DNA from: an uncultured delta proteobacterium | GTDB taxonomy: Bacteria > Desulfobacterota > Binatia > UBA9968 | Length of the DNA: 64,000 bases | Assembly: GCA_963728565.1 (NCBI GenBank) | Contig: CAVSLC010000013.1 | Span: 160,001 to 224,000 of the forward strand | Direction: 5' to 3' | Part shown: one piece after another, positions 2,895 to 55,586 of the stretch | Layout of the letters: each line of letters starts with the position of its first letter | Position numbering within the stretch: position 1 is the first letter of the stretch | Position numbers and translations under genes: made by a program | Notes under the pieces: model-generated | Database searches by the model: none | What the model saw: only the letters and a program-made list of their open reading frames with translations | What the model was told of the DNA's origin: nothing

Positions 2895-3548
2895 ATGGAG
2901 ATGGTTGATCTTTCGCGAATTATTTACGACGGTATGCCCAAAATCCCGGCTCTGCCGGACGTTCATGTGCAGAAGTTTTTTAGTCTCGAAAAGGGCCACC
3001 CTTTGAACGTGACGGAGCTGTCGTTGCCATGTCACGCCGGCACTCACGTCGATGCGCCCATTCACATAGTGCCAAACGGCAAGTCAATAGAAGAACTTCC
3101 GCTGGATTCATTTGTCGGCAACGGAGCCATCATCGCTGTACGAAAAAACGGCGGAGAAGAAGTGACAGCGGAGGATCTTCAGGCATCGGGGGTTGAGGTG
3201 AAGAAGGGCGATATCCTGATGCTCTATACCGGCTGGGACGAAAAGTTCGATAGTCCTGATTATAACCTTCATCCGTATTTGTCCGTAGATGCCGCCGAAT
3301 GGATGGTTGATAAGGGGATAAAGATGTTTGGTATCGACTGCATCACCGTCGATTTGCCGACGCCGCTTAGACCCAAGGGATTTGATTTCCCCGTGCACAA
3401 AACTCTTCTAAGCAACAACATTTTAATTGCAGAGAACGTGACAAATCTTGGACCTGTCGTTGGCAAGAGCTGCCGGATCCTGGCCTTTCCTCTCCGGATC
3501 AAAGGCAGCGATGCGGGACATGCTCGAATTGTCGCCGAACTCAATTGA
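2895..3548 (+). CDS. cyclase / kynurenine formamidase (KynB-like) metal hydrolase
   Basis: HAGTHVDAPIH motif, GD.LMLYTGW, GID.ITVD, H..LL...ILIAENV. Confidence 0.9.
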   Translation: MEMVDLSRIIYDGMPKIPALPDVHVQKFFSLEKGHPLNVTELSLPCHAGTHVDAPIHIVPNGKSIEELPLDSFVGNGAIIAVRKNGGEEVTAEDLQASGVEVKKGDILMLYTGWDEKFDSPDYNLHPYLSVDAAEWMVDKGIKMFGIDCITVDLPTPLRPKGFDFPVHKTLLSNNILIAENVTNLGPVVGKSCRILAFPLRIKGSDAGHARIVAELN

Positions 3549-3564: not shown

Positions 3565-4534
3565 ATGGCTTCAACGAAAACCATCAAAGGGTATTATCGG
3601 CGCTTGTTTAACGCCGTTCGACGATAGCGACCATATAGATTATCCGGCCTTAGAGAAGGAAATGGATTTTCTTCTTGCCGATTGTGACGCGGTAACAATT
3701 GCCGCTGTGGAAGCCGCCGAGTACACCATGCTCAGCCGCGAAGAGCGAAAAGAGCTTTTAAAAGTCGGCACGCAGATGGTCGACAAGCGCGTTCCGGTAA
3801 TCATTGGTTGTTCCAGTCCGTCGCCTCGCGAAGTAATTGACCTGGCCGAGTACGCAGCCACGATTGGCGGAGACTTTGTCCAAGTGCTGATGCCGCTCCG
3901 CCCATGGGGAGGTCAACCGACCATAGCGGAGTTGATGGAATTTTATACACAAGTCGCGTCGGCAAGTCCCTTGCCGGTGGTTTGTTATCATAATCCTGGG
4001 CCGGGCGCCGATCCGCCACAGGATGCTTTCGTCAAGATAAGCGAAATTGACAACATCCGATATTTCAAGGAAAGCTCAAGAGATATCACGAAGATCTCCA
4101 GGTTAATTGAACAGATCGAACTTGCCGGGCGGGGTCATTACTTCACCACCATGCAGCCACTGCTAGTCACTTTGATGCTCGGCGGCTCCGGCGCCACTAT
4201 GCCTCCGCCCGGAACCCGCATCGGGGCGCAAATTGTGAAAGCATTTCGAGCAAACGATCTTGAAAGCGCCCGGTTTTGGGCGCGCTGCTACGCATTATTT
4301 CCCGGAAAATGGGCCGCTTACGGTTTGCCGCCGGTAATGAAATCTGCGATGAAACACTTCGGCGTGGATATCGGCAATCCTTCGCGGCCCTATGCCCCCG
4401 TAAGCCCCCGCGATCATGCTCAAATCGGCCAGTTTCTCCGCCAGGTTGGGTTAATTGGTGAAGCCCCACCTAATCCGAAAGCTTTGATAGACGCCGCTAA
4501 TTTCCTTGCTCAGGAAGATACCTTTCTCCGTTAG
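3565..4534 (+). CDS. dihydrodipicolinate synthase (DapA/NAL)-family lyase; one extra base near 3589-3591
   Basis: ATG at 3565 gives MASTKTIK; after a +1 shift it reads GIIGACLTPFDDSDHIDYPALEKE (typical family N-terminus) and joins ORF 3662-4534, which has YHNP and the Schiff-base lysine in FKES. Confidence 0.8.
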
Positions 4535-4600
4535 CTTGACGATGGATACTCGCTAGGAGCAATCGTCTCGCAAATATTCGCGCATAATCTTATTGGAGCT

Positions 4601-4792
4601 GTGATGGAATGGATTAAAGATCTTTCCGATAAACTGGTTATTTGGTTTCTCCGCAAAACTTCCTCGTTCGGCAAAGAGCTTACCGGCGCAGGTCGAGCAG
4701 AGCAGCTCCTGTGGCGAGAGCAGCGCTTGCGGAATCTAAAGGGTCTCGCAATGAGCTACCAGCAACGCCACGGTAAAAAAACTTCAGAATAG
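4601..4792 (+). CDS. small hypothetical protein directly upstream of SQR
   Basis: RBS GGAG, 63 aa, ends 12 nt before the SQR start. Confidence 0.5.
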   Translation: MMEWIKDLSDKLVIWFLRKTSSFGKELTGAGRAEQLLWREQRLRNLKGLAMSYQQRHGKKTSE

Positions 4793-4804
4793 GTTTCCGA
4801 TCTA

Positions 4805-5962
4805 ATGCGTCGATTCAATGGGCGAAAACAAATTGTGATATTGGGCGGCGGGTGTGGCGGCGTGGTTGCCGCGAGTCAGCTGGGCAGGAAATTGGGCGCC
4901 GACCACGATGTTATTCTCATCGACCGCCGCGCGGATCACGTCTTTATGCCCGCGTTTCTATTCCTGATGACCGGTGACCGACAGCCGCGAGAGATTTGTC
5001 GCAGCCTGAGTGCGCTGAAGAAGCGCAACGTTAAAGTGATTCAATCCGAAATTCTCGACATCGATCCTATGGCTCAAGAGGTCAGCCTTGCCAAAGAAAA
5101 GATCAGTTATGACTATCTCATTGTTTCTTTAGGCTTGCAGACGAGACCGGACTTGGTAAGCGGCTTTAATGAAGCCTCGCTTCATCCTTGGGAGATGGAA
5201 TCGGCTCTCAGGTTGCGGCATGCACTGTCTGAGTTTCGCGGTGGAAGGGTTGTCGTCGGCGTGCCTTTGGGACCCTACCGCTGCCCGCCAGCGCCCTATG
5301 AGGCACAGTGGATGTTGGACGGCTTTTTTAGGCAGCGCGGTATTCGTGATCGTGTACAGATAGACTACTTTACCCGGGATCCTGAACCGACCGGCGAAGC
5401 CCACGATCCGATAGTTTGGATGGACGCCGAGAGCAGAAGGCGCAAAATTGATATCCACTACGAATTTGTCGTGCGCTCTATCGATCCGGTCAAAAAACAA
5501 ATTGATGGACTCTATAACTATAGTTTGCCCTACGATCTTCTGGTGATGGTTCCGCCGCATCGTCCAGCGCAAGTTCTCCTCGACTGTGGATTGGCAGAGG
5601 CTGAAACCGGCATACGAGTAGACTATGACACGCTGCAAACGAAATGGAAAAACGTCTTCGCGATCGGCGATTGTGCCGATATGCCGGCTTCTAAAGCGGG
5701 AGGTGTTGCCCACCAAGAAGCTGACGTTCTGGCTAACAATTTAGCTGTAGAAATCACTGGAAAGGGAAGACCGGTAGATCTTTGGCTGCATACAATATGA
5801 CTACTTGCTTTCGGCGCTGGACGCGCCGCTGCTAATAGAACAACTTACCCCACCGGATGGCCGCCTTACGGAGTCACCGATCCCCGGACATGGGGACCCA
5901 ATCGACTGATCTATTGGGCTAAGATTGGCTTTGAAAAATGGTGGTTGTGGCGGTATTTCTAG
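4805..5962 (+). CDS. sqr: sulfide:quinone oxidoreductase family protein, candidate selenoprotein (Sec at TGA 5798-5800; 385 aa with readthrough)
   Basis: IVILGGG.GG FAD motif, YDYLIVSLG, catalytic RCPPAPYE (Cys160), VFAIGD, KAGGVA; the frame continues past TGA as LLAFGAG...YWAKIGFEKWWLWRYF to TAG at 5960-5962, the typical SQR C-terminal amphipathic helix. Confidence 0.85.
5801..5838 (+). promoter_or_regulatory. putative bacterial SECIS hairpin
   Basis: Upper stem CGGCGC(5812-17)/GCGCCG(5823-28) with loop TGGAC starting 17 nt after the TGA; imperfect lower stem CTACTTGC/GCTAATAG. Confidence 0.65.
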
Positions 5963-6127
5963 AGCCTAGACTTTAATTCAGAGTAAGCTTTATCGAGGCG
6001 GAGCAAATCATCTCATCCAACTTACTTCTTTGGCGTAACTTGAGGCATTCGATTGCCGGGGCCGATTCATGGTTGGATTAGAGTAGCAGGGGTAGGGGCG
6101 CAGCAAATAAGTGGAGGCGTATACAAA

Positions 6128-6155
6128 AGTTTACATAATATATCTTATCAGACGT
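6128..6155 (-). other. dif: XerCD recombination site dif
   Basis: Reverse complement ACGTCTGATAA-GATATA-TTATGTAAACT: 11-6-11 architecture with a near-canonical XerD arm (E. coli TTATGTTAAAT); intergenic between convergent gene blocks. Confidence 0.85.
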
Positions 6156-6219
6156 TAGATTATGAGGAAGGCTAGATCAAGGAGTTGACGAACTGTAGTC
6201 ACTACTCGATGGATCGTCA

Positions 6220-6915
6220 CTATTTAACGGCTGACTCCGGCTCAGCCTTGGCTTGCAGTTCAGCAACTTGCAGCATGAGACGCGCGGCAATCGGTGAGTT
6301 AGGGTTTTCTTTGATGTACTGCTGATATGCAACAATCGCCGATTTGTTGTCACCGACGACCGTATAACACCGTGCCTTTCCGAGCACGGCGGATTCCTTC
6401 AGCGCTCCGGTAATTCGTTCCGCTTCGGTATAGTGCTGAATTGCGCCGGCGCATTGGTTTTTCACTTCTTGTATGTGCCCAAGCGTCATCAAACCTATCT
6501 GTCGATAAACGGAGTTCTGATCTGTGGAAGCGATGAAGCGCTGGGCCGCCGCGGCCGCTTTGTCCAGATCGTTTGTAGCTAGATGACTGTTGGCCTCGTA
6601 GAGATGCGCCAGAGCGGCATAATGAGACCAGCGATACTCTTCGACTTTTTCAAATTCCGGAATCGCTTCGTTGTGCTTATTGGCGCGAAAAAGCGCGATC
6701 GCCCTTTCGAAGTGCTGGGCTGCTTCCTGGTTTTGGCGGCTCTTATAAACCTGCCAAAGCGAAATCCCGATGATCACAGCCATGATCAAAGCACCAGCCA
6801 GAATAAAAAGTCGACGCTTTTGTTGAACGAAACTCAAGGCCTGCTGAGTGAATAGCACGAAGTTGTCGGGTTGCCGGAGTTCCTTACGTGACAAGTGCTT
6901 AGCGCTGGTCGCCAT
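6220..6915 (-). CDS. YfgM-like tetratricopeptide-repeat membrane protein
   Basis: RKEL.QPD.F N-terminus, single TM helix, TPR-like helical repeats. Confidence 0.75.
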   Translation of the reverse strand: MATSAKHLSRKELRQPDNFVLFTQQALSFVQQKRRLFILAGALIMAVIIGISLWQVYKSRQNQEAAQHFERAIALFRANKHNEAIPEFEKVEEYRWSHYAALAHLYEANSHLATNDLDKAAAAAQRFIASTDQNSVYRQIGLMTLGHIQEVKNQCAGAIQHYTEAERITGALKESAVLGKARCYTVVGDNKSAIVAYQQYIKENPNSPIAARLMLQVAELQAKAEPESAVK

Positions 6916-7500: not shown

Positions 7501-8858
7501 ACCATTTCCCCCTGCGCTTGGATTTCTGAAGCTGTTTCTTCAATGGTGAGTTCTCCGACCAGGGAGTTAACTGTTGCAGCGATGATCCGTGCGTTTATCA
7601 TCTCCCCGATCAGATTCCCACGCCCCACAATATTAACGATTCGATTGCTTCGCGTGCGCCCCATTACTTGCGCTCTATTGCGCGAATGGCCGTCAATCAA
7701 TACTTCTTCGATCGCCCCGATTTTTTCCTTGTTTTTTCTTAGGGAAATTTCCTGCTGAACATTCTGCACTTGCTTCAGCCGCTCTTTCTTCTTTTCTTCT
7801 AGGACGTCGTCGTTGTAGAGCTTTGCCGATACAGTATGGATGCGCGGCGAGTACATGAACGAGTAAATTTCATCATACTCCACTTGACTCAGCAATTCTA
7901 GGGTTCTTTCAAACTCGTCATCGGTTTCGCCCGGAAATCCGACAATGATGTCCGTGCTCAAGGCAACTTCAGGGCAACGTTGTCGCAAGCGATCAATACG
8001 ACCGAAATACTCGCTGCGCGTATAACCGCGACGCATTCTCACGAGCACGCTATCGGAACCGGACTGAACAGGCAAATGAAGGTGTTCGCAAACTTTATCC
8101 AGAGTAGCGTAGGCCTCGATCAGGTCCTCGGACAGATCTTGCGGGTGAGAAGTTGTAAACCGAATCCGTGAAAGTCCTTCAACTGCATCAACGCGCTGAA
8201 GAAGTTCCGCAAAGGAGATTTCGCCGGCAGATGTCTTGCCGTAAGAGTTTACGTTCTGACCAAGCAACATCACTTCTTTAACGCCCTGAGTAGTCAGTGA
8301 TTTAATTTCGGCGATAATTTTTTCGCTCGGCCGGCTCACTTCGCGACCACGAACGTGCGGAACGATGCAGAAGCTGCAAACCTTATTGCAACCCTGCATG
8401 ATGGTGACGAATGCTTTTGCGCCCTGTACGTGGGTCCTGCCGTCGGGATCTTCCATGTAGGAAGCATCCCGGTAGAAAGCGATTTCGACTGGACGGGCGT
8501 GAGCCGACTCTACCTGTTCGATCATATCGGGGAGCTTGTGGATATTGTGGGTGCCGAAAACGAGATCTAAATGAGCAATGCGCTTGAGAAGCCGGTCTCC
8601 TTCTTGTTGCGCAACGCAACCTCCGACTCCTATAATGACACCTGATTTCTGCTGTTTGATTTCACGCCAGCTCCCGAGGGCGCTGTAAACCTTTTGCTCC
8701 GCCTTATCGCGCACGCTGCAGGTATTTAATAGAAGCAAGTCGGCATTTGCGGGTTCGTCGGTCAGCGTGTAATTTGCCCGGCCCATGACCTGCGCGATCC
8801 GTTCTGAATCATATTGATTCATCTGGCAACCGTAGGTCTGGATATACATCTTCTTCAT
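7497..8858 (-). CDS. miaB: tRNA i6A37 methylthiotransferase MiaB
   Basis: TYGCQMN.YDSE, NTCSVR.KAE, radical-SAM GCNKVCSFC, C-terminal TRAM domain. Confidence 0.96.
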   Translation of the reverse strand: MKKMYIQTYGCQMNQYDSERIAQVMGRANYTLTDEPANADLLLLNTCSVRDKAEQKVYSALGSWREIKQQKSGVIIGVGGCVAQQEGDRLLKRIAHLDLVFGTHNIHKLPDMIEQVESAHARPVEIAFYRDASYMEDPDGRTHVQGAKAFVTIMQGCNKVCSFCIVPHVRGREVSRPSEKIIAEIKSLTTQGVKEVMLLGQNVNSYGKTSAGEISFAELLQRVDAVEGLSRIRFTTSHPQDLSEDLIEAYATLDKVCEHLHLPVQSGSDSVLVRMRRGYTRSEYFGRIDRLRQRCPEVALSTDIIVGFPGETDDEFERTLELLSQVEYDEIYSFMYSPRIHTVSAKLYNDDVLEEKKKERLKQVQNVQQEISLRKNKEKIGAIEEVLIDGHSRNRAQVMGRTRSNRIVNIVGRGNLIGEMINARIIAATVNSLVGELTIEETASEIQAQGEMV

Positions 8859-10261
8859 GGCGCGATGGCTTCAATGAGGTTGTAAAGTTGGCCGATGTTG
8901 CGGCACTCCTCCGCAACCTTACAGTAAGGAGCGTAACGTGGCATTTCGCTGTCGCCCACTCCCCAGGTCATCCTACTTTCAGGATTGAGCCAAATCAGTT
9001 GCTTGGCCTTTTGCTGGATTTCTCGCAACACCCATTCGGCCGGACGATTATAATTGTTTCGGCCATCGCCGATGATCAAAACCGTGGTCTTATTGGTGAC
9101 GGCCGAAAAATATTCTTTGTAGAACAGCTCAAAGGCACGGCCGAAGTTGGAGTGCGAGTAAACATCGATGACATTTCCCGTGAGAGCCATTTCGATGGCC
9201 TTATGGATATCGTGTTCTTCGAAGAGCTGAGTCACCTCTCCAATATCGCTGACGAAAACAAAACTTCGCACCTTTGAATAGAGATCCTGAATAGAATAAA
9301 CAAATTGCAGCATAAAGCGTGACGCATTCAAGACAGAATCCGAAATGTCGCACAAGACCACGACCTGAGGCTTGGTTTTCGTTCGGCGGTCCAATTGGAT
9401 ATGGAAAGGCACTCCACCGAACTGAAGATTTTTGCGCAGCGTTTCGTTTAAGTCGAATCGCCCGCGAGCAGCATTCTTACGCCGGACAGAGAGCCTATTC
9501 TTAAATCGCTGAGCCAGTCGTGTAACCGCCTCGTTCATCCGTTGAATGTCGTCTTCGCTATAGAAGCTGAAGCTCTTCTCCGCCAGTGTCACCAATCGAC
9601 TTCGATCCGAACCGTCCATTCCGCGCTTTCGCTGTTCCTGCTGGATGATCTCGCGGAGCATTCCGTACAAGTTCTTGAGGCGCTGATCAAGGTAGCGAAT
9701 AACCAATTCCGAGCTTTCGCCGCTTTGCGCCAGCATCTGTAAATGGCTCTTAAGCCGTTCGATTTCATCCTGAAGCTTGTCGAGCTCAAGGTTGGATGCG
9801 ATCTTAGTAAACGGTGTGAAGCGAAAACTCTGATTGAACCCTCGTTCCGCTTCGGCGGCAGCTGCCTGCCGCAACAAGCGCTCCAGCTCTCCCTTGTTGC
9901 CGCTAAGCAGAGCCCGGGTGAGATCGGACAGCTCCCCTTCCATTTGCTTGAGGAATCTATCGATGCGATCGAGCAGCTCTTGAAACTCCTGAGGTGACAA
10001 ACCGAGCTGCTCCATCAACTGTTGGTCCGCTTGATTAAGGGATCGACCGATACCCAAAAAGAACAAGTCAAATAGTTCATCAAACGGCCGTAAATCAATC
10101 GCGCGTTTTACCAGCGTGGTTCGGAGGGCGGCGCGAAACTGTGACGGATCTTCAATGCCCAGCAAATCGATGGCGCGAAATGCGTCGATATTCTCCGACA
10201 ACGACACGCGCACGCCATTGCGCCTGAGGACGTTGGTAAATTCGATGATCTGGTCCTGCAT
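8855..10261 (-). CDS. VWA (CoxE-like) domain protein
   Basis: MIDAS motif CDISDSV, IIGDGRNNY, WLNPE; follows a MoxR ATPase. Confidence 0.88.
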   Translation of the reverse strand: MQDQIIEFTNVLRRNGVRVSLSENIDAFRAIDLLGIEDPSQFRAALRTTLVKRAIDLRPFDELFDLFFLGIGRSLNQADQQLMEQLGLSPQEFQELLDRIDRFLKQMEGELSDLTRALLSGNKGELERLLRQAAAAEAERGFNQSFRFTPFTKIASNLELDKLQDEIERLKSHLQMLAQSGESSELVIRYLDQRLKNLYGMLREIIQQEQRKRGMDGSDRSRLVTLAEKSFSFYSEDDIQRMNEAVTRLAQRFKNRLSVRRKNAARGRFDLNETLRKNLQFGGVPFHIQLDRRTKTKPQVVVLCDISDSVLNASRFMLQFVYSIQDLYSKVRSFVFVSDIGEVTQLFEEHDIHKAIEMALTGNVIDVYSHSNFGRAFELFYKEYFSAVTNKTTVLIIGDGRNNYNRPAEWVLREIQQKAKQLIWLNPESRMTWGVGDSEMPRYAPYCKVAEECRNIGQLYNLIEAIAP

Positions 10262-10276
10262 TGAGAAACCTAGTAT

Positions 10277-11236
10277 CTAATGCAGATGATCCTTGTCATC
10301 TTGGGGCTTGACGCCCGGAATAGCGCGGCGCTCCGCCAAGTAGCTTTGTAATTCTTGCTGCGCCTTCCGAATATCGGCTTCATATTTTACGAGAGTCGAT
10401 AGCGTTGCGTTCACCAGTTCGTCATCCAGCGATCTAACGTTCAGTAAAGTTAGAGCTTTGACCCAGTCGAGAGTTTCGCTGATACTCGGGGTTTTTTTCA
10501 GGTCGAGCTTGCGAATACGTTGGATCAGCTGAATTACGTTCTGCGTCAATTTGTAATCGATTCCAGGAACTTTGAGGTTGACGATCTCGGCTTCGCGTTG
10601 GGCGTCGGGAAAGTCGATATGAAGATGCAGACAACGGCGTTTAAGAGCGTCGGACATCTCACGGCTGCTGTTACTGGTGAGCACGACCAGCGGAATGTGT
10701 TTGGCCTTCAGAGTGCCGATCTCGGGCACACTGATCTGGAAATCGCTCAAAACCTCGAGCAAGAATGCCTCAAATTCAGCGTCCGACTTATCCACTTCGT
10801 CGATCAGTAAAACGCTTCGTTTATCGGATAAAATCGCGCGCAGCAACGGACGTGGCAGCAAAAACCGATCAGAAAAGAAGACACCGTCCTGGCTGGCAAT
10901 GCGATCAACCGCCTGTTGCAAAGTTTTAGCTTCCTGCAAGACTTCGCCGATCTTGTCCTTGAGAATCTGGGTGTAGAGTAACTGCTTTGCGTATTCCCAT
11001 TCGTAGAGCGCTTTCGCTTCATCCAAGCCTTCGTAGCATTGCAATCGGATGAGCTCTAAACCCAATGAGCCCGCCAAAACTTTACCAAGCTCGGTCTTAC
11101 CGACACCGGCTGGACCTTCGACCAGAATCGGTTTCTGCAGGCAGATACCAAGATACACGACGGTGGCTAAATTCTTGTTACAGATATAGTTTTGAGCCCC
11201 AAAACCAGCGATGACCTGATCCACAGAATGAAACAT
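10277..11236 (-). CDS. MoxR-family AAA+ ATPase (CoxD-like)
   Basis: Walker A GPAGVGKT, RLQCYEGLD, Walker B LLIDEVDK, SDALKRRC. Confidence 0.92.
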   Translation of the reverse strand: MFHSVDQVIAGFGAQNYICNKNLATVVYLGICLQKPILVEGPAGVGKTELGKVLAGSLGLELIRLQCYEGLDEAKALYEWEYAKQLLYTQILKDKIGEVLQEAKTLQQAVDRIASQDGVFFSDRFLLPRPLLRAILSDKRSVLLIDEVDKSDAEFEAFLLEVLSDFQISVPEIGTLKAKHIPLVVLTSNSSREMSDALKRRCLHLHIDFPDAQREAEIVNLKVPGIDYKLTQNVIQLIQRIRKLDLKKTPSISETLDWVKALTLLNVRSLDDELVNATLSTLVKYEADIRKAQQELQSYLAERRAIPGVKPQDDKDHLH

Positions 11237-40702: not shown

Positions 40703-41731
40703 ATGGAAACAGAGCCGCTGCCTTCGATCCTTGCGCCGCATCAGAAGGCGCGATGGAAAACCAATCAGGACGGTATCTGGACCTTGGACGGCTCCCGCGT
40801 AGATGAGGTCCCAGCCCGTTCGATTTTGACAACCTTATGGGATCAGCCCCGCTGGTTGGAGGCCTATCACTTATACGATCAACGAGGCTCCGATCTTTTC
40901 GAGCAGATTTGTCAGCTGCCGGAGTATTATCTGACTCGTACAGAAAATAGCATTCTCGAAGCGCAAGCCGCCGCAATCATCGCCGCCGCGCCGGTAGAAT
41001 GCATCGTCGAACTAGGCGCAGGCTATAGCAAGAAGACGATTCATTTGCTTACGGAACAGCTGCGGCAGCGCGACAAAGGGATCTTCGCGCCCATCGATGT
41101 GAGCGAATCAGGGCTACTGGCCTCGCGAGAAGCGGTCGCCCGAGATTTCCCGCGATTAGAGTTTCACGGACTTCACGCTCGCTATGAGGACGGCTTTACC
41201 AGTATCGAGCAAGCCGTGCCGACCCTGTTTGTGTTTCTCGGCAGCACTGTCGGCAACTTCAATCACTCTGACTTTCCACGTTTCTTTCGCGCGTTATCGG
41301 AAGCGATGGGACCGAAGGATTATCTCCTGCTCGGCGCCGATCGTATTAAGGACACAACGCTTCTCGAGCAGGCTTACAACGATTCACAGGGGCTGACCGC
41401 GCAGTTCATTCTGAACGTGTTTTGTCATATCAACGATCTGCTCGGGAGCAATTTTGACCTGGCAAAAATGCGCTATCACGCGCGCTTCAATTCGGAATGG
41501 CAGCAAATCGAAATGTACGCCATAGCGGAGCAACGTCATCGAGTAAGCTTCCCTACAGTAGAAACATCTTTCGAGTGGCAGAAAGACGAAAAAATTCTGG
41601 TGGAGATCAGCCGTAAGTTCGACCCTCAGCGGTTACAGGAACAGCTAAGGTTTTTCGATCTCCTACCGATCGAGCACTTCACCGATCCTAATCAATGGTT
41701 TTCCGTTCTGCTCTTCCGCAAGCAAGGCTGA
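40703..41731 (+). CDS. egtD: L-histidine N-alpha-methyltransferase
   Basis: YD.RGS.LFE.IC.LPEYY.TR.E, VELGAG.S.KT, FLGSTVGN, AYND..G.TA.F, EISRKF. Confidence 0.92.
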   Translation: METEPLPSILAPHQKARWKTNQDGIWTLDGSRVDEVPARSILTTLWDQPRWLEAYHLYDQRGSDLFEQICQLPEYYLTRTENSILEAQAAAIIAAAPVECIVELGAGYSKKTIHLLTEQLRQRDKGIFAPIDVSESGLLASREAVARDFPRLEFHGLHARYEDGFTSIEQAVPTLFVFLGSTVGNFNHSDFPRFFRALSEAMGPKDYLLLGADRIKDTTLLEQAYNDSQGLTAQFILNVFCHINDLLGSNFDLAKMRYHARFNSEWQQIEMYAIAEQRHRVSFPTVETSFEWQKDEKILVEISRKFDPQRLQEQLRFFDLLPIEHFTDPNQWFSVLLFRKQG

Positions 41732-41805
41732 ATCTTAGACAACTCCGAAAGCTGCCCGGATAGTATCCCGCTGCCGCACATGCGTTAAGTGGGCACCCTG
41801 CTCGG

Positions 41806-42451
41806 TCAAGGCATTCCCAATAACGATCCCAGTGGTGAAATACTCAGCAACAGAACACTGCCGAAAACGGCAATGCCGCCGCCTGAGATGCGATGGATCC
41901 ACCATAAAAGACGCAAATTAAATCTGTCGCGAAACACCGTTAGGCCGAGAAACAATGCCACCCACCACGATGCCGAACCTACAAAGACCCCGGCGGCGAA
42001 TAGCGCCGCGCCGCCATACTGGCCAATCATGCTCTGGGCATTCCAGGCGGCATAAATCGCAGCGAAAGACAGTATGGTCAAGGGATTGGACAAGGTCAGA
42101 AGAAGGGTTGCCACGTATGTTCGCAGAAGCCCATTGATTCTCTTCGTTCGCGGCGGCGGTTGTCCGGGACGCGTGCAGATAGATTTCGTAACCGAGATAA
42201 CAAAGAAAAAGCCCGCCGACGAGTCGGAAAGCAAACTGGTGATCAACTAAGAACTGCGATACCAGCGAAATGCTCAGGGCCGCGATGCCTCCGGCCAAAG
42301 CATCAGCCGTGGCGATACCCAGGCCGGAAAAAAGGCCATACCATGGGCCCAGAGACAGCGCTCGATTGATGCACAACAGTCCGAGTGGGCCAACCGGTAC
42401 TGCCACGACAAATCCCATCATGGCGCCTTTGATGAGAAGATGAATTGCCAT
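41806..42451 (-). CDS. LysE-family exporter; frameshifted near 42180
   Basis: The N-half PVGPLGLLCI.R.L..G...G..SGLG.ATAD and the C-half LTLSNPLTILSF...GVFVGSA.WW are in different frames. Confidence 0.8.
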
Positions 42452-42467
42452 TCCTGCCGTCGGAACT

Positions 42468-43289
42468 TTATTTTCTTGAGCGCGCGCAGCGAAAGCCGAT
42501 ATTGTGATGACCCGAACGGAAATTCCGAGAGACATGAGCGCCTCGATGGGTCGTCGTCAACTCTTCGGCCGCCGAATCCTGACCGCCTCCTCTGGTGACC
42601 CGTACGAGGTCCCGCTGCAACTCTTCACGGCCGTCAGCGGCATTATAGGGATAAGGAAGATACGCGCTGCTCACCCATTCCCAGCCGTTGCCGGCGAGAT
42701 CGAGCACGCCATAGGGGCTTGCTCCTTTCGGCAAGCTCCCCACCGGACGGAAGTCATTCCATCCTGCGCTGAAATGCGCCCGGGTGCGATCGGGCGGATC
42801 ATTGCCCCAGGGAAATTTTCGCCCGTCTGTGCCGCGCGCCGATTTCTCCCATTCCGCTTCGGTCGGCAATCGCTTACCTGACCAATCGCAGTACGCTGCC
42901 GCGCCGAACCACGAGGCCTCGATTACCGGGTGGTTCTCAAAGCCGGGATCAGACTGCCATTTACCGGCGCGAAGGTGAATGCGCGCGTCGTTATCAGCGT
43001 TATCGTACCACCGTTCGGCAGCTGCACCTCGAACGCCTTTGGCCTCGAGGAACCGGGCAAACTGCGAGTTCGTCACCGGTAAACGATCGATGAAAAATTC
43101 CGGCAAATCAATCCGGTGCTGTGGCCGCTCGTCGGCGGGCCCGTCGTCTCTGCCCATTGAAAATGGCCCGGCAGGGATTCTTCTCATGTCAGCGCCATCG
43201 TTTGCATCGGCGCCGGTCGTTTGCGCGATACATGCGGTCATTAATACGACCGAAAGTAAACCCCTCCGCCCAAGAAGAAAACGGCTCAT
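42468..43289 (-). CDS. secreted formylglycine-generating-enzyme (SUMF1/EgtB/PvdO) domain protein
   Basis: Signal peptide, IP.G.F.MG, RLPTEAEWEK.ARG, DLAGN.WEW, IGFRCA; lacks the FGE catalytic cysteines after RGG. Confidence 0.88.
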   Translation of the reverse strand: MSRFLLGRRGLLSVVLMTACIAQTTGADANDGADMRRIPAGPFSMGRDDGPADERPQHRIDLPEFFIDRLPVTNSQFARFLEAKGVRGAAAERWYDNADNDARIHLRAGKWQSDPGFENHPVIEASWFGAAAYCDWSGKRLPTEAEWEKSARGTDGRKFPWGNDPPDRTRAHFSAGWNDFRPVGSLPKGASPYGVLDLAGNGWEWVSSAYLPYPYNAADGREELQRDLVRVTRGGGQDSAAEELTTTHRGAHVSRNFRSGHHNIGFRCARSRK

Positions 43290-43384
43290 GATCGCAACAT
43301 ACCGCTTTTGGAAATTCTAGGAAACACCGCGAATAGGACGAGCTAAACTTGTCACAGGTTTAAGCCTGTGCGAAAGTCCCAGCA

Positions 43385-44530
43385 ATGCGCAACTCGCAAT
43401 CGTTTCGCCGCCGCGGTGTTGTCGAAGGATTCTTTGGTCCGGTGTGGAGCATGGCCCATCGCCGCCGCCTATTCGAGTTCGGCGCCGCTCGGGGAATGAA
43501 CACCTACCTCTATGCGCCAAAGGACGATCCCTTCCATCGCGAACGCTGGATGGAACCTTATCCTGAGAAGGAATGGCAGGCGCTCTTGACTATCATTCGC
43601 GAAGCACGAAAGCGCCACATCGATTTTGTTTACGGCTTTCATCCCGGCAAGGCACTTTTGTTTAGCGCCGAGCAACCGCTGCGCATTCTGCTGTCGAAGG
43701 CGCAGCGTTTCTACGATGCGGGAGTGCGTACCTTCGCAGTGCTGTTCGACGATATCCCTTCTCGTCTGGAGCATGCCGCCGATCGCAAGCATTTCAACAA
43801 CAGCTTGGCACGAGCCGAAGGAAATTGGCTGGCAGAAATTATCGCTCTTCAGCCGCCTGCATGGTCCGATGTGGAGTGGTGGATCTGCCCTTCGTTTTAT
43901 ACCCGCGATCCATTACTGGCGCGCGTGTTTGGCGCCTTTGAGCCGCATTTTTTGGAAAATCTAGCGAAGTACCTTCCGCCCAATGTCTCCTGCTGCTGGA
44001 CCGGCCCTTTGGTGGTATCGACAAAGATAACCCTCGCGCACGTTAGAAAAATTGCCAAGCTCGTCGGCCGGCCGTTGATTCTCTGGGACAACTATCCGGT
44101 GAACGATCTTTCAATGAAGGACGAGCTTCACCTGGGTCCGTTGAAAAATCGTGACACGCATCTGCCGGAAATCGTTTACGGCTACCTCAACAATCCGTTA
44201 GTTCAAGAAGAACTGAGCTTTATCCCTTTGGCCACCTGTTTTGATTATGCCTTAAACCCTATGGCCTATAGAGCGGAAGAAAGTTGGAACGCGTTCGTTA
44301 AACGCTCTTTCGGTCAGCGCGAGAGCGCGCACTGGCGCGCCATTCGGAGCTTCTGCGAAAGAGTTCAGCGAACTAAACGATCAAAAGTTGCCTTGCGCAT
44401 CCCGCGCAGAGAACTGGAGGCGTTGCAAGACGCATCAGAATATATAAAGGCACATCGTCAAGAAAAATGGGCCGTGGAAATCAAGCCATGGCAGGAACAG
44501 ATCGAACAAGCGCTTAAAGCGCAGCAGTAG
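43385..44530 (+). CDS. GH84 beta-N-acetylglucosaminidase (O-GlcNAcase) catalytic domain
   Basis: RGVVEGFFG..WS, MNTYLYAPKDDP.HR..W, catalytic LFDDI, WTG..V, IL.WDNYPVND; no signal peptide. Confidence 0.9.
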   Translation: MRNSQSFRRRGVVEGFFGPVWSMAHRRRLFEFGAARGMNTYLYAPKDDPFHRERWMEPYPEKEWQALLTIIREARKRHIDFVYGFHPGKALLFSAEQPLRILLSKAQRFYDAGVRTFAVLFDDIPSRLEHAADRKHFNNSLARAEGNWLAEIIALQPPAWSDVEWWICPSFYTRDPLLARVFGAFEPHFLENLAKYLPPNVSCCWTGPLVVSTKITLAHVRKIAKLVGRPLILWDNYPVNDLSMKDELHLGPLKNRDTHLPEIVYGYLNNPLVQEELSFIPLATCFDYALNPMAYRAEESWNAFVKRSFGQRESAHWRAIRSFCERVQRTKRSKVALRIPRRELEALQDASEYIKAHRQEKWAVEIKPWQEQIEQALKAQQ

Positions 44531-44598
44531 ATCGTTATAACTACAGTTCGTCCAAATCTTGATCGCGCGCCGAGACTAGCGTAAATTTTTCAGAATGA

Positions 44599-46029
44599 TT
44601 GATCCCCACAGTTACGCCGAGTTTGCGCGGCAGGCCACTTCCGGCAATGAAAGGCGCTGAGCTGATTTCGCTGATGCGAGAGTATCGTTCCCGTACCCGA
44701 GAGTTGGTTGCAGATCTTGATGAGCGGCAACTGATCGGACCGCGTTTAGCAACGGTGAACCCGCCGTTATGGGAGATCGGACACGTCGGCTGGTTTCAGG
44801 AGTTTTGGCTCTTGCGCCACCTGCGCCGGCAGAAGCCACTGCTTGAGAACGGTGATCAACTCTATAATTCAACGGATGTAGCTCATGATGTTCGCTGGGA
44901 CCTTCTACTGCCTTCGCGCAATAACACATGGCGCTATCTGGACGAAGTCTTGAATCGAGTCATCGAACCGATCGAAGGTAAGCATGATTTATCCAAGGAG
45001 GAGCTCTACTTTTACTCTCTGACCACGTTTCATGAAGCCATGCACGCCGAAGCACTGGCGTGCACAAGGCAAACCCACGGTTATCCCAAGCCGAGCTTCC
45101 TGCCCGCCCACCGTATAGACCAAAATCGATCTGATGATCTTTGCCCAGGAGATGCAGAAATTCCGGGCGGCACATTCTTGATCGGTGCGACGCCTGACGC
45201 ACCGTTCGTTTTCGACAACGAAAAATGGGCTCATGAGGTAGTTCTTCGGCCCTTCCGGATCTCGCGCGCGCCGGTGAGCAATAGAGAATTTCGAGAATTC
45301 GTCGAGGACGGGGGTTATTGCCAGCCAAACTGGTGGAGCGAAGAAGGCTGGCGCTGGCTGGCGACCGGCGGCGCCCCGCAGCTCGAGCATTCGTTCGCAA
45401 AATTCTTCAACAAGCCGATCAAGCAGTCGAGTCAAGCGCATGCCGCTAAAGAGAAACTTGAGCATCCCATGTACTGGCGCCGTGACCCTGATGGCCACTG
45501 GCAACAGCGGGTTTTTGATCGCTACGTTCCGCTGCATGACAATCTGCCGGTTGTGCATGTCAGTTGGTACGAAGCGGAAGCGTTTTGCGCTTGGGCCGGA
45601 CGGCGTTTACCGAGCGAAGCGGAATGGGAAACTGCCGCATCGGCAGAACCAGCTCCCGACGGTTGCAGCTTGAGCAACAAACGGCGTCATTTCCCCTGGG
45701 GAGATACGCTACCGACTAGTGTCGAGGCAAACCTTGACTGGCAGAACGGAATCGTTGAAATCAGCGCCCATGGAGCAGGCGACAGCGCGTTTGGTTGTCG
45801 TCAGATGATCGGCAATGTCTGGGAGTGGACCGCTGACAACTTCATGCCTTATCCAGGATTTATCGCGGATCCTTATAAGGAATACTCGAAGCCGTGGTTC
45901 GGCACCCATAAGGTCCTGCGCGGCGGCTGCTGGGCGACCTCTTCGCGGCTCATTCGCAACACCTGGAGAAACTTCTACACGCCGGATCGTCGCGATGTTT
46001 TCTCCGGCTTTCGAACATGCGCAAAGTGA
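44599..46029 (+). CDS. senA: selenoneine synthase SenA (EgtB-like sulfoxide/selenoxide synthase)
   Basis: DinB-like domain with NPPLWEIGHVGWFQE and HEAMHAE iron ligands, FDNEKWAH, FGE-like C-terminal domain; directly upstream of senB; alternative start 44647. Confidence 0.88.
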   Translation: MIPTVTPSLRGRPLPAMKGAELISLMREYRSRTRELVADLDERQLIGPRLATVNPPLWEIGHVGWFQEFWLLRHLRRQKPLLENGDQLYNSTDVAHDVRWDLLLPSRNNTWRYLDEVLNRVIEPIEGKHDLSKEELYFYSLTTFHEAMHAEALACTRQTHGYPKPSFLPAHRIDQNRSDDLCPGDAEIPGGTFLIGATPDAPFVFDNEKWAHEVVLRPFRISRAPVSNREFREFVEDGGYCQPNWWSEEGWRWLATGGAPQLEHSFAKFFNKPIKQSSQAHAAKEKLEHPMYWRRDPDGHWQQRVFDRYVPLHDNLPVVHVSWYEAEAFCAWAGRRLPSEAEWETAASAEPAPDGCSLSNKRRHFPWGDTLPTSVEANLDWQNGIVEISAHGAGDSAFGCRQMIGNVWEWTADNFMPYPGFIADPYKEYSKPWFGTHKVLRGGCWATSSRLIRNTWRNFYTPDRRDVFSGFRTCAK

Positions 46030-46038
46030 TGCTCCAAC

Positions 46039-46995
46039 GTGAAAATCCAGCTCGTCACTCCGGCGCCGTTGCGCTTTAACAACGGCAACAAGATTACCGC
46101 CCTGCGGTGGGCGAAAATCCTTAGAACCCTTGGACACCGCGTAACGGTTTTGCAGCATTATGACGATAAGCCCTGCGATGCGCTGATTGCACTTCATGCG
46201 AGACGGAGCTATCGGTCGATCCGCCGTTTTCGCAAACTTCATCCCGAATTACCCTTGATCGTCGTCCTAACCGGGACGGACCTCTATCGCGATATCCGCA
46301 GCCACCGCAGTGCTCAACGGTCGCTCACGCTGGCGACGCGGATTGTTGCGCTGCAGAAGATGGCGTTGTCGGAATTATCCGAATCCTTGCATTCAAAAAC
46401 TCGGGTGATCTATCAGTCCGCGGAGCGCTGTTTGAGCCGTAATTCAAAAAATCGAGGAGATGGATTCAAAGTCTCAGTTATCGGTCACCTGAGAAACGAG
46501 AAGGACCCGCTGCGAACCGCATTGGCGACCCGCCGTTTGCCGAAGCACTCGCGGATCGAGGTACAGCATATCGGCCGGGCGTTGGATAAAGACCTCGAGC
46601 GCCGGGCGCGAGCCGAAATGGCGAGAAACCCACGCTATCGGTGGATCGGAGAGTTGGCGCATAAAAGGACCCGGGAGATTCTAGCGCAAAGCGATGTAAC
46701 GGTTATCACCTCGCGCATGGAAGGAAGCTCGAATGTGTTATCCGAAGCGCTCGCCTGCGCCGTGCCGGTCATCGCTTCGAGAATACCCGGATTGATGGGA
46801 ACCCTAGGAAGCGATTACCCGGGCTACTTTGCCACGGGCGACACGGTTTCACTGAGGGAAATTCTATTCCGAGCCGAAAGCGATCGGGCCTTTTACCGCT
46901 CGTTGCAATCAATTTGCAAGAGCTTGTCGCCCCTGGTGGCGCCCAAGCGAGAAGTGGCTGCCTGGAAACAACTTCTACAAGAGCTGCAATCTTAA
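46039..46995 (+). CDS. senB: selenosugar synthase SenB (Se-glycosyltransferase)
   Basis: VTPA....NGN..TA.RWA, ALHARRS, VLTGTDLY, GHLR.EKDP, S.MEG..NV.SEA, LG.DYPGYF. Confidence 0.92.
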   Translation: MKIQLVTPAPLRFNNGNKITALRWAKILRTLGHRVTVLQHYDDKPCDALIALHARRSYRSIRRFRKLHPELPLIVVLTGTDLYRDIRSHRSAQRSLTLATRIVALQKMALSELSESLHSKTRVIYQSAERCLSRNSKNRGDGFKVSVIGHLRNEKDPLRTALATRRLPKHSRIEVQHIGRALDKDLERRARAEMARNPRYRWIGELAHKRTREILAQSDVTVITSRMEGSSNVLSEALACAVPVIASRIPGLMGTLGSDYPGYFATGDTVSLREILFRAESDRAFYRSLQSICKSLSPLVAPKREVAAWKQLLQELQS

Positions 46996-50906: not shown

Positions 50907-51815
50907 CTACTTAACGGTCAATAACGCTTCTTTCGCTTCGTCGAGTTGTTTGAGTTCCTCTTTGCTTAGTTTTGGATACTGCAAATTTAGGGACGCGAGA
51001 AGGTCCACCAAAGCAGCTGCAACGATGAGGTGAGTAAACCATTTGTTATCTGCCGGCACGAGGTACCAGGGTGCTTGTTTGGTCGAGGTGTGCCGAATCA
51101 TATCCTCGTATGCTTCCATGTAGTCATCCCAGTGTTCGCGTTCATGGACGTCATTCACTGAAAACTTCCAGTTCTTCTCGGGTTTATCGATTCACTCTAG
51201 GAACCGTTTTTTCTGCTCTTTCTTAGACAGATGCAAATAGAATTTGCGAATAACTATACCATTGCGTGTCAAATAGCGCTCAAACTTCCGAATATCCTGG
51301 AATCGCTCTTTCCAGATATTCTTGGTGACAAGTTCAGGCGGGAGCTTCTGCTTCTCCAACAACTCCGGATGCACCCGCACAACCAGGGTTTCTTCGTAGT
51401 AGCTGCGATTGAATAGCCCGATCATGCCGCGCTCCGGCAAACGTCTCGCGCAGCGCCACAGGTAATCGTGATCGAGCTCCTCGCTGCTTGGCGCTTTGAA
51501 GGATTGAACCTGACAGCCCTGCGGATTGACGCCGGACATGACATGCTTAATGACGCTGTCCTTGCCTGCCGTATCCATCGCCTGAAAGATAACCAGCACC
51601 GCCCAACGGTTCTGTGCATAAAGTTTCTCTTGGAGCTTCGCCAAGATCTCGATTCCGGCGGCAAGGCCTTCCTTGGCGCGCGGTTTATCCTCGGAGTTTA
51701 AGTCGAGTGTGTCGGCAGGGTCAAAATCTTTGAGACGAAAACTCTGACGATCGGTGACGCGAAAGGGTTTGATCAACTCTCTAGCGCTCTCTATCATTGT
51801 ATCTATTGCCATCAT
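50907..51815 (-). pseudogene. ppk2: polyphosphate kinase 2 (class III-like) interrupted by in-frame TGA at 51192-51194
   Basis: QAMDTAGKD, FNRSYYE; the two ORFs are in frame: RFLE*IDKPEKNWKFS, where the family has R (CGA>TGA). Confidence 0.85.
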
Positions 51816-53484: not shown

Positions 53485-55586
53485 CTAGATCACATCATTG
53501 GTCAAATCGTTTTCGGCTCGTAAGATCTCATAGAGCCGGTCCTGAGAACGGATGTGTGGTCGACCCGTGCTAGTAACGCGTGATGAGCTACCGTCAGCAT
53601 GGATTTCCCAGGCTTTGGCGGTATCGCTGAGCTGAATCTCCAAGATCTCTTTCAGTCTAAGCTGATGCTGTGGGTCGAGTATCGGAAAAGCGATTTCAAC
53701 GCGTCGATCGAAATTGCGCGGCATCCAATCGGCGGAAGATAACCAGTACGCGGAATCGCCGCGATTATGGAAATAGAAGATGCGAGCATGCTCTAAGTAG
53801 CGGTCGATGATTGAAATGACCCGAATTTTCTCCGAGACGCCCGGAACACCCGGACTGAAACTGCACATGCCGCGTACGATCAAGTCGATCTGCACTCCTG
53901 CTTGGCTGGCACTGTAAAGCTCATCGATGATCGCAGGATCGGTTAAGCTATTCACTTTGGCGATGATCCGCGCCGACTCGCCGCTGCGCGCATGCTCTTT
54001 TTCCTTACGGATGCAGTTAAGGAAGCGCTCCCTCAGTCCAGTCGGCGCCAGTAGTAACTGCTGGAACTTCTGCGGTCGGGTGTAGCCGGTCAGCAGATTG
54101 AATAACTCGGTGAGATCCTGACCAAAGGCTTCCCGGCATGTAAATAGCCCTAGATCGCTATAAACGCCGGCCGTGCGTACATTGTAATTGCCGGTCGCGA
54201 GATGACAGTAGCGCCGAATGCCATCGATTTCCTGGCGCACCACCAGACAGATTTTGCAATGTGTTTTATATCCCACCAAGCCATACACGACGTGCGCCCC
54301 AATTTCTTCCAAGGCCCGCGCCCAGGTGATATTTCTTCCTCATCAAATTTTGCCTGCAACTCACAAGCACCGACACCTCTTTCCGCATTCGGCTGCACGC
54401 GCCAAGGCCTGAGCAATGGGCGAGGAAGGGCTAACGCGATAAAGGGTCATTTTGATCGCAAGCACTTTAGGATCTTTAGCGCGCTTCATCGACAAAACGA
54501 GTCACCGCATCGAAGGAATGGTACGGGTGAAACAGCATGATGTCGCCCGCGCGTATAGCGCTCCAGATATCGGCCGCACGTTCGAAAGCCACCACCGGCA
54601 AAGCTGACTGCGGTCGGTCTTTGAGGCGAGGCATACTGACCGCGGAGTAAAGCTGGAAAAGATCAGTGAACGCAGTAAAGCCTGTGCTCGGATACAGGTC
54701 CTCAGCTCCCAATTAGAGCTCATCACTAGTGGCTCACATTCCGCGGCAGCTCCGGATCGTAGTGCAATCGCACAGCATCACCCATTCGACGCTCGCGGAC
54801 ACCCTGCTCGATCGTCATCAACAGATCTTCGTCGTGCCGGCGCAGCATCCCAAATTCGGCGTCCCGAGTCACTCGGATGGCGTGACACGATCGGATCTCG
54901 AAGCCGTGATAAAGGCGTGGCACATACCGGCTAAGAACATCTTCCAAAAGCACAAACGCATGCTGCCCCTCGCGCGTCGGCAACGGCACGAAGCGAGGCA
55001 CGACGTGCGTTGGGATATGAAGAATTGAAAGATCGGTGTGCGGCAAACGGGAAGCTACGGTGGGACTCAGCGACACGACAAAACATAATGAGCGATTGGC
55101 AAGGTAGGGAAACGGATGTCCCGGATCGATGGCAAGCGGCGTCAGAATCGGATAAAGGGTGCGATTGAAAAAGTCTTCGAGAAAGCGCTCCTGCTCACCG
55201 CTCATCTCTTGCGGCCGAACCAAATGAATGCCTTCCGTGGCCAAATGCGGCAATATCGTATTGATGAAACACAGATGCTGTTCCTCGACAAGCTCGTGGG
55301 CTCGCTTCGAGATAGCTGTTAGGATTTCAGCAGGTGTACGTCCTTCCGGATCCGAATTCTGAGATCCTTTGAAGAGCTGCCGTTTGATGCGAGCGACACG
55401 AACCATGAAAAATTCATCGAGATTAGAACTGAAGATAGCTAAAAACTTAACCCGCTCGAGCAACGGCACAGTCTCATCTTTGGCCTCCTCCAGAACTCGC
55501 CGGTTGAATTCAAGCCATGACAACTCACGCTGCAGATACCTATGGTTCTTATCTCCGTCCATATTACTATCCTGATGTGTTCCCAT
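53485..55586 (-). pseudogene. ppk1: polyphosphate kinase 1 with several frameshifts between about 54330 and 54740
   Basis: RELSWLEFN.RVL, NLDEFFMVRV, DPGHPFP, HPY.SF, KTHCK, TGNYN, SADWMPRN spread over several frames. Confidence 0.88.

Follow-up and report, generated by a model that had tools for sequence, protein, structure and literature searches.

The window analysed here is a stretch of 64,000 nucleotides from an uncultured Binatia-type bacterium (assembly GCA_963728565.1, contig CAVSLC010000013.1, positions 160,001 to 224,000), and the gene at 4805..5962 on its forward strand encodes a flavoprotein resembling sulfide:quinone oxidoreductase (SQR) that very probably carries selenocysteine (Sec, U) at residue 332. 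From the ATG at 4805, the called open reading frame (ORF; 4805-5800) ends at a TGA at 5798-5800 (...DLWLHTI*), while the frame continues without a stop for a further 53 codons up to a TAG at 5960-5962, giving 385 residues when the TGA is read as Sec. An earlier reading made from the sequence alone (the sequence-only reading) had described this stop and open tail, an intact first redox cysteine and a tail free of Cys, and all of this holds: Cys160 lies in CPPAPYE (TGC at 5282..5284, +), and the 53-codon stretch contains no Cys. A binding motif for flavin adenine dinucleotide (FAD), GGGCGGV, occupies residues 13-19 (4841..4861, +) in the Pyr_redox_2 domain, with G14 and G19 invariant and G16 at least 90% conserved among 75 homologues. 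On the 385-residue product, Pfam gives Pyr_redox_2 at 69 bits and FCSD_central, the central domain of flavocytochrome c sulfide dehydrogenase, at 30 bits. The in-frame UGA (5798..5800, +) falls in the motif H-T-I-U and is followed by a hairpin, and the AlphaFold2 model closes the protein with an amphipathic helix, residues 367-384 (...LIYWAKIGFEKWWLWRYF; 5903..5956, +), presumably the membrane and quinone-site helix, in which K373 is at least 90% conserved among the same homologues.

Since several genes of the window look frame-broken, likely through assembly indels, other genomes were consulted for the TGA. Of 41 related genomes, which span three families of one order, 38 carry an orthologue whose frame contains exactly one TGA; none was found in G009 (82% complete), G015 (100%) and G040 (97%). 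The TGA stands at codon 332 in all 35 of the relatives' loci, within the motif LHTIULL[AST][FYCM]GAGRAAA, and in 33 of 33 when the two unpublished genomes G012 and G018 are set aside; both are included in the 38/41 and 35/35 counts and in those for selB below, and the conclusions are the same without them. Among the loci from public genomes, 78 of 80 have TGA at the residue-332 column and the remaining two end before it, so that all 78 informative loci agree. This conservation reaches 62% identity, the four loci at 62-65% being labelled Acidobacteriota; the other metagenome-assembled genomes (MAGs) with an orthologue are recorded as Candidatus Binatia, Deltaproteobacteria, Thermodesulfobacteriota or Syntrophobacter-like.

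In each of the 83 unique full-length orthologous coding sequences (CDSs), codon 332 is TGA and codon 386 a stop. Across these CDSs the mean entropy of the tail at codon positions 1, 2 and 3 is 0.34, 0.23 and 1.21 bits, and the tail is conserved above the body (median identity to the window gene 83% versus 73%); the 53 codons evolve as coding sequence. Elsewhere TGA is an ordinary stop, ending 13 of the window's 35 family-matched ORFs and serving as the final stop in 26 of the 83 orthologues. The orthologue TGAs, the constraint on the tail and the ordinary use of TGA as a stop together exclude a nonsense mutation, an error and a general reassignment of TGA. One genome of the same genus, G002, holds two copies of the Sec flavoprotein gene (L027 and L057, 84% and 78% identical to that of the window), both with TGA. 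A phylum-wide sample of 300 genomes yielded no further orthologue at E <= 1e-80, which only implies a narrow clade within that sample. Parts of the gene occur in soil and rhizosphere metagenomes and in six soil metatranscriptome runs, and runs from 15 studies contain all or part of the stretch. One DNA contig, assembled in another study and covering 5695-5982, spans the TGA and differs solely at 5866; a contig from an RNA library covers 5719-5911, and neither has a listed difference at 5798-5800.

The sequence-only reading had placed the UGA at the second redox cysteine of an SQR, and distant homologues bear this out. Among 124 representatives (those of 50%-identity clusters that are at least 360 aa long, plus P0123), 106 have Cys in the residue-332 column and 113 in the Cys160 column; in the printed alignment with human SQOR, the Cys residues of its YTSCPL and VKCAGAP motifs are aligned with U332 and Cys160, respectively. 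The clade also contains a Cys form, the full-length database protein P0006 (385 aa, 70% identical), which has Cys at the site and reads ELHTICLLAFEPGKAAANR. It has EPGK where all Sec forms have GAGR, the residues encoded by the hairpin.

That hairpin, of the selenocysteine insertion sequence (SECIS) type, lies at 5812..5828 (+) and was defined by an RNAalifold consensus, with a stem at 5812-5817/5823-5828 and an apical loop at 5818-5822 of the form N-G-G-N-C (UGGAC in the window). Numbered from the U of UGA (position 1), nucleotides 15-20 (CGGCGC) pair with nucleotides 26-31 (GCGCCG), and the UGA is separated from the stem by 11 nt and from the loop by 17 nt. The 6-bp GC upper stem and its spacing are thus as first described from the sequence, but the lower stem drawn with them appears only in the minimum free energy (MFE) fold of the single sequence and is absent from the consensus of 80 unique orthologous 48-nt stretches, which retains the 6-bp upper stem alone (-11.2 kcal/mol). 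Across these 80 sequences the stem shows 13 one-sided changes, all to G.U, and 2 broken cells. Independent genomes retain the TGA (35/35 relatives' loci and 78/78 informative public loci, as counted above) as well as the hairpin. Single-sequence folding was rejected as evidence on its own (z -0.61). Because the stem codes for conserved residues, synonymous sites were tested to separate RNA from protein constraint, in a set of 82 in-register orthologues with 82 conserved four-fold-degenerate columns. Third positions inside the stem, three in number, rank 1-3 of 82 by lowest entropy (Arg340 0.10, Gly337 0.17 and Ala341 0.28 bits), the next lowest column has 0.82 bits and the median is 1.59 bits; columns of the loop and the sequence following it (Ala338, Gly339, Ala342, Ala343) rank 36-63. 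The calculated chance of the three named columns taking ranks 1-3 is about 1 in 88,000. The hairpin is under RNA constraint, and its support is comparative, from synonymous-site constraint and from changes to G.U only.

The bSECISearch model, as quoted in an excerpt of a 2026 review (PMC13188914), specifies a loop of 3-9 nt with the pattern N1 G [G|U] N N2, a stem of 4-16 bp, a distance of 16-37 nt from UGA to loop and an MFE <= -7.5 kcal/mol. The window hairpin lies within all four constraints quoted there (5-nt loop N-G-G-N-C fitting the pattern, 6-bp stem, 17 nt, MFE -14.4 for the single sequence and -11.2 for the consensus); neither a bulged U nor a lower stem is conserved in it. At gathering thresholds, Rfam returned three tRNAs in the window and no match at the gene.

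The genome to which the window belongs (G000, 80.6% complete) encodes the factors for Sec insertion, whose presence the sequence-only reading had made a test of its proposal. A tRNA-Sec scores 74 bits with Rfam and has the anticodon TCA according to ARAGORN, and contig 28 carries a selA-selB-selD cluster (608, 396 and 382 bits), so that selA, selB, selC and selD are all present above their cutoffs. The selD gene (G000:C28:38569-39495) matches TIGR00476, at 382 bits, across one in-frame TGA, and SelD of this genome is probably a selenoprotein itself, judging by its reading frame. Separately, a rhodanese-like match at G000:C4:7902-8183 has one in-frame TGA and may be another selenoprotein candidate. 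Among the 41 relatives, selB exceeds its cutoff in 36, including 34 of the 38 carriers of the TGA orthologue; the 100%-complete G015 has neither selB nor the orthologue. The gene therefore combines what is expected of a selenoprotein gene, namely a conserved UGA with a constrained tail, Cys homologues, a SECIS-type stem-loop and Sec machinery in the genome, and the alignment, the orthologue TGAs, the hairpin and the machinery all support Sec at residue 332 as it was originally proposed.

The AlphaFold2 model, built from a 75-row alignment, reached a predicted local distance difference test score of 94.7 and a predicted template modelling score of 0.93, and places residue 332 within strand 328-337, the first strand of the C-terminal domain, ahead of a single terminal helix (367-384). 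Its top Foldseek matches are the Aquifex, human and Acidithiobacillus SQRs together with flavocytochrome c flavoproteins (template modelling score, TM, 0.81-0.86), in keeping with the SQR assignment first made from the sequence. Against the solved SQRs of human, Aquifex aeolicus and Acidithiobacillus ferrooxidans (3t31) the TM is 0.81-0.85. By sequence, human SQOR (6oi5, 8dhk) is matched at E 2e-33 with both redox positions aligned, and A. aeolicus SQR (3hyv) at E 7e-20; Acidianus SQR and flavocytochrome c sulfide dehydrogenase are further best matches among solved structures. The protein thus shows the flavoprotein fold with two dinucleotide-binding domains and FAD motifs and keeps the two redox positions, C160 and Sec332. 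The SQR quinone channel is described, in an excerpt of PMC9666304, as lined by hydrophobic residues on either side of the conserved C-terminal Cys, and in the window protein Ile331 and Leu333, which flank U332, may line such a site. It differs from the solved enzymes in having Sec for Cys, an identity of 21-26%, and a shorter C-terminal region with one predicted helix. For A. ferrooxidans SQR, structure-entry titles also mention a third cysteine, Cys128.

The sequence-only reading did not count SQR among the standard bacterial selenoprotein families, a view that is out of date. Sec-containing SQR homologues were predicted in 2025 from a few Desulfobulbales-type genomes, and both the literature and NCBIfam now hold a selenoprotein subtype of type III SQR (NF049943). 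This model is the best NCBIfam match of the window protein, over profile positions 1-378 of 406, at 250 bits against a cutoff of 525 and hence below membership. Five of 85 scanned representatives reach the cutoff (534-627 bits, 412-581 aa), and these are about 33% identical to the window protein. The two groups share the fold family, Sec at the same column and a His at -3: H329-T-I-U332 aligns with the HxxC/HxxU motif of the NF049943 clade, whose Cys forms read DGH[SA]N-C-F there where the window clade has H-T-I-U. Among metagenome loci of the NF049943 clade, 4 of 80 have TGA at the column (DGHST-U-FIVSSHGMAY) and 76 have TGT or TGC. The four TGA loci, L156, L159, L178 and L191, are metagenome contigs, each continuing with a palindromic AGCCAU/AUGGCU. 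Both kinds of TGA gene thus have a hairpin just past the UGA with GG at +22/+23 from U, but the hairpins and the residues they encode differ (GGCGC..GCGCC and GAGRAA in the window clade; AGCCAU-GGU-AUGGCU and SSHGMA in NF049943), as do the lengths (385 aa versus about 410-420 aa) and the hosts (soil Binatia-type MAGs versus Desulfobulbales-type bacteria).

We placed both groups in a 126-row tree, made by quick search under LG+G4 and rooted at the midpoint, with branch support from the Shimodaira-Hasegawa-like approximate likelihood ratio test (SH-aLRT); the tree is in effect unrooted, so it cannot prove the direction of change. The window clade, including the Cys form P0006, forms one branch (SH-aLRT 100, stem 0.73). 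The NF049943 clade falls inside a larger clade of 39 rows (SH-aLRT 99) to which the window clade does not belong; many Cys-only clusters lie between the two, which are not sisters. The simplest reading of the phylogeny is that Sec replaced Cys twice, independently, at one catalytic position. The window gene represents a further lineage of an already predicted kind of enzyme, distinct, widespread in soil MAGs and probably independent. Type III SQRs, the least known SQR type, couple H2S oxidation to quinone reduction according to an excerpt of PMC10205796. Those of Caldivirga maquilingensis and Methylacidiphilum fumariolicum SolV are Cys enzymes. A literature search on selenocysteine or selenoproteins in Binatia or Binatota found no paper, although deep-Sep supplements or BSepDB may list the clade; the main text of the BSepDB paper does not contain 'sulfide', 'quinone', 'Binat' or 'FAD-dependent'.

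The computed results are a conserved UGA, a tail constrained as coding sequence, a hairpin constrained as RNA, a genome with Sec machinery, and a protein with the SQR fold whose residue 332 aligns with the catalytic Cys; they suggest how the protein may be made and work. The 6-bp GC hairpin, 11 nt past the UGA and with GG in its loop, would recruit SelB with Sec-tRNA(Sec), and the ribosome would insert Sec332 instead of stopping. In the resulting 385-residue product, predicted to be a monotopic flavoprotein of the SQR fold, Sec332 would substitute for the C-terminal redox Cys, flanked by Ile331 and Leu333 and paired with Cys160 beside the FAD. This Cys/Sec pair would oxidise sulfide to sulfane sulfur and send the electrons through FAD to membrane quinone, and in one related family the sulfane sulfur may pass to a fusion of persulfide dioxygenase (PDO) and rhodanese encoded directly downstream. 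We are highly confident that the UGA is decoded as Sec, an assignment made by comparison of sequences. Given Sec, an SQR with a Cys160/Sec332 redox pair is likely, with sulfide as the putative substrate and quinone as the putative acceptor. The explanation as a whole, an SQR-fold flavoprotein with hairpin-directed Sec332 that oxidises sulfide and passes electrons to quinone, is strongly favoured. The idea that the pair is tuned to low sulfide or oxidises selenide is speculation.

Several points weigh against this explanation. The explanation infers Sec insertion, FAD, quinone reduction and the substrate, along with any kinetic advantage of selenium. The region 5795-5860 folds at an MFE of -14.4 kcal/mol against -12.8 +/- 2.7 for shuffled sequences (z -0.61), with 46 of the 200 shuffled sequences folding equally well. 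RNAalifold found 0 compensatory double changes across the 6 stem pairs in the 80 sequences, and the stem also encodes the conserved residues G-A-G-R-A, so that part of its conservation could reflect the protein. No selB was found in 4 of the 38 carriers, G001 (84% complete), G007 (96%), G016 (94%) and G033 (81%). In the comparison with sequencing runs 42 differences were not printed, so that the identity of the RNA contig at the codon is not proven, and RNA libraries can contain DNA. Finally, the flanks of the window locus contain no sulfur-oxidation gene, and the neighbours that are there do not point to sulfide.

These neighbours, all on the forward strand, are a haem-oxygenase-like iron enzyme (2123-2881; Pfam PF14518), a putative cyclase (2895-3548; PF04199) and a DHDPS-family enzyme (~3565-4534; PF00701) whose frame is broken near the 5' end by a 1-nt insertion (~3565-3600) relative to L059. 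The order haem-oxygenase-like gene, cyclase, DHDPS, Sec flavoprotein is conserved across loci L023-L137. Of 90 unique loci, 86 have the DHDPS-family gene immediately before the flavoprotein gene and on its strand, and the remaining four have less than 500 nt of flank on that side; 76 of the 90 contain the cyclase and 44 the haem-oxygenase-like gene, the latter count being limited by flank length. The four Acidobacteriota-labelled loci keep the DHDPS gene and the flavoprotein, while their further neighbours differ and include a divergent Amidohydro_2 gene. A functional link between these upstream genes and the flavoprotein is putative and unproven. A pattern scan of 4450-6250 for promoters and terminators gave no match and is uninformative on operon structure. 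Downstream, a metallo-beta-lactamase and rhodanese fusion of the PDO type follows on the same strand at 19-186 nt in 22 of 90 loci, all of one family (L043-L051, L053, L100-L102, L106, L107, L110, L111, L115-L117, L121 and L135), and stands on the opposite strand in 2; this fusion supports sulfide oxidation for the clade. In G000 the best hit for such a partner is a 266-aa metallo-beta-lactamase ORF (G000:C25:86529-87188), 37% identical over the PDO part only and not established as a persulfide dioxygenase, and fragmented matches occur on C5.

The conserved and unexplained upstream genes feed the strongest competing explanation, that an SQR-fold selenoprotein has a job other than sulfide, acting with the upstream genes on an organic sulfur or selenium compound or oxidising selenide. 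The DHDPS-family gene is in place in all 86 loci with enough flank, Acidobacteriota-labelled ones included, the cyclase and haem-oxygenase-like genes are conserved in Binatia-type loci, and the clade sits on a long stem (0.73), apart from other SQR-like clusters and far under the NF049943 cutoff. As for selenide, A. ferrooxidans SQR has been crystallised with it (entry title 3sz0), and the abstract of a preprint (10.1101/2023.04.13.535674) names it as a substrate of human SQOR. On the other side, the roughly 270 nt between the DHDPS and flavoprotein genes do not require one operon, and kinship alone can hold neighbours together. Several SQR features are kept (both redox positions, the FAD motifs, the hydrophobic flanks of the Cys/Sec and a predicted C-terminal helix), and the usual SQR partner, the PDO-rhodanese fusion, lies directly downstream in one family. 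We regard this explanation as unlikely. We give slightly less credence still to its fuller form, suggested by a flavoprotein locked beside DHDPS and, in Binatia-type genomes, the cyclase and haem-oxygenase-like enzyme too: that the Binatia/Acidobacteriota-type clade represents an independent Sec invention and the quinone-linked step of an undescribed organic sulfur, organic selenium or selenide pathway, not a detoxifying or respiratory SQR.

Readthrough of the UGA could in principle insert another residue, such as Trp, Cys or Gly, through a near-cognate tRNA or a local recoding signal; there is no direct evidence of selenium in the protein, and selB is missing from the four carrier genomes named above. 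This is very improbable, as the homologous column is the catalytic Cys, the spacing and loop of the hairpin fit the bacterial SECIS model, G000 has complete Sec machinery, TGA is otherwise an ordinary stop, and G015, the sole 100%-complete relative lacking selB, lacks the orthologue as well. Hardly credible at all is a true stop, giving a 331-residue product, a nonsense pseudogene or a sequencing error, with the downstream frame due to chance or a separate element. In its favour, 119 of the best 120 matches are given with 327-334 aa by gene callers and public databases, and frame breaks do occur elsewhere in this assembly. Against it, the TGA is kept in every informative orthologue to as low as 62% identity, codon-phase constraint acts on the tail, which is conserved above the body and always ends at codon 386, a truncated protein would lose the membrane helix along with the second redox residue, P0006 with its Cys is full length, and independent assemblies agree at the codon.

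Other features of the window lie apart from the gene. Both senA (44599-46029; 496 bits against a cutoff of 420) and senB (46039-46995; 398 against 300), cited in the sequence-only reading as independent evidence of selenophosphate metabolism, are real and above their cutoffs, but they lie about 39 kb away and say nothing specific about the SQR-like gene. They belong to a selenoneine-type cluster (40703-46995) with an egtD-like histidine methyltransferase (40703-41731; 297 bits against 291), and a shorter SenA/EgtB-like ORF stands on the opposite strand (42468-43289). Further apparent frame breaks split PPK2 (50907-51158 and 51192-51815, reverse strand) and ppk1 (53485-54312 and 54726-55586, reverse strand). 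At 8855-11236 on the reverse strand, just past miaB, a MadB-like AAA ATPase (354 bits, under its cutoff of 475) lies beside a MadC-like VWA protein.

The Sec codon has consequences for annotation. Among the best 120 matches in a large protein collection, 119 are 327-334 aa long, that is, cut at the TGA, and the window protein itself is listed with 331 aa; JGI entries bear the name 'sulfide:quinone oxidoreductase' and NCBI entries 'FAD/NAD(P)-binding oxidoreductase'. Given the 250 bits of the window protein against the cutoff of 525, the current NCBIfam model would fail to recover them. The finding opens no new category of biology; it adds a second, seemingly separate Sec-SQR lineage, common in soil metagenomes, beyond the Desulfobulbales-type predictions. 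It means that Binatia-type MAGs, as annotated, appear to have a smaller selenoproteome and less capacity for handling sulfide than they do, a shortfall that a dedicated model would fix, and the natural Sec/Cys pair formed by the window protein and P0006 offers a clean system for studying the role of selenium in the SQR reaction.

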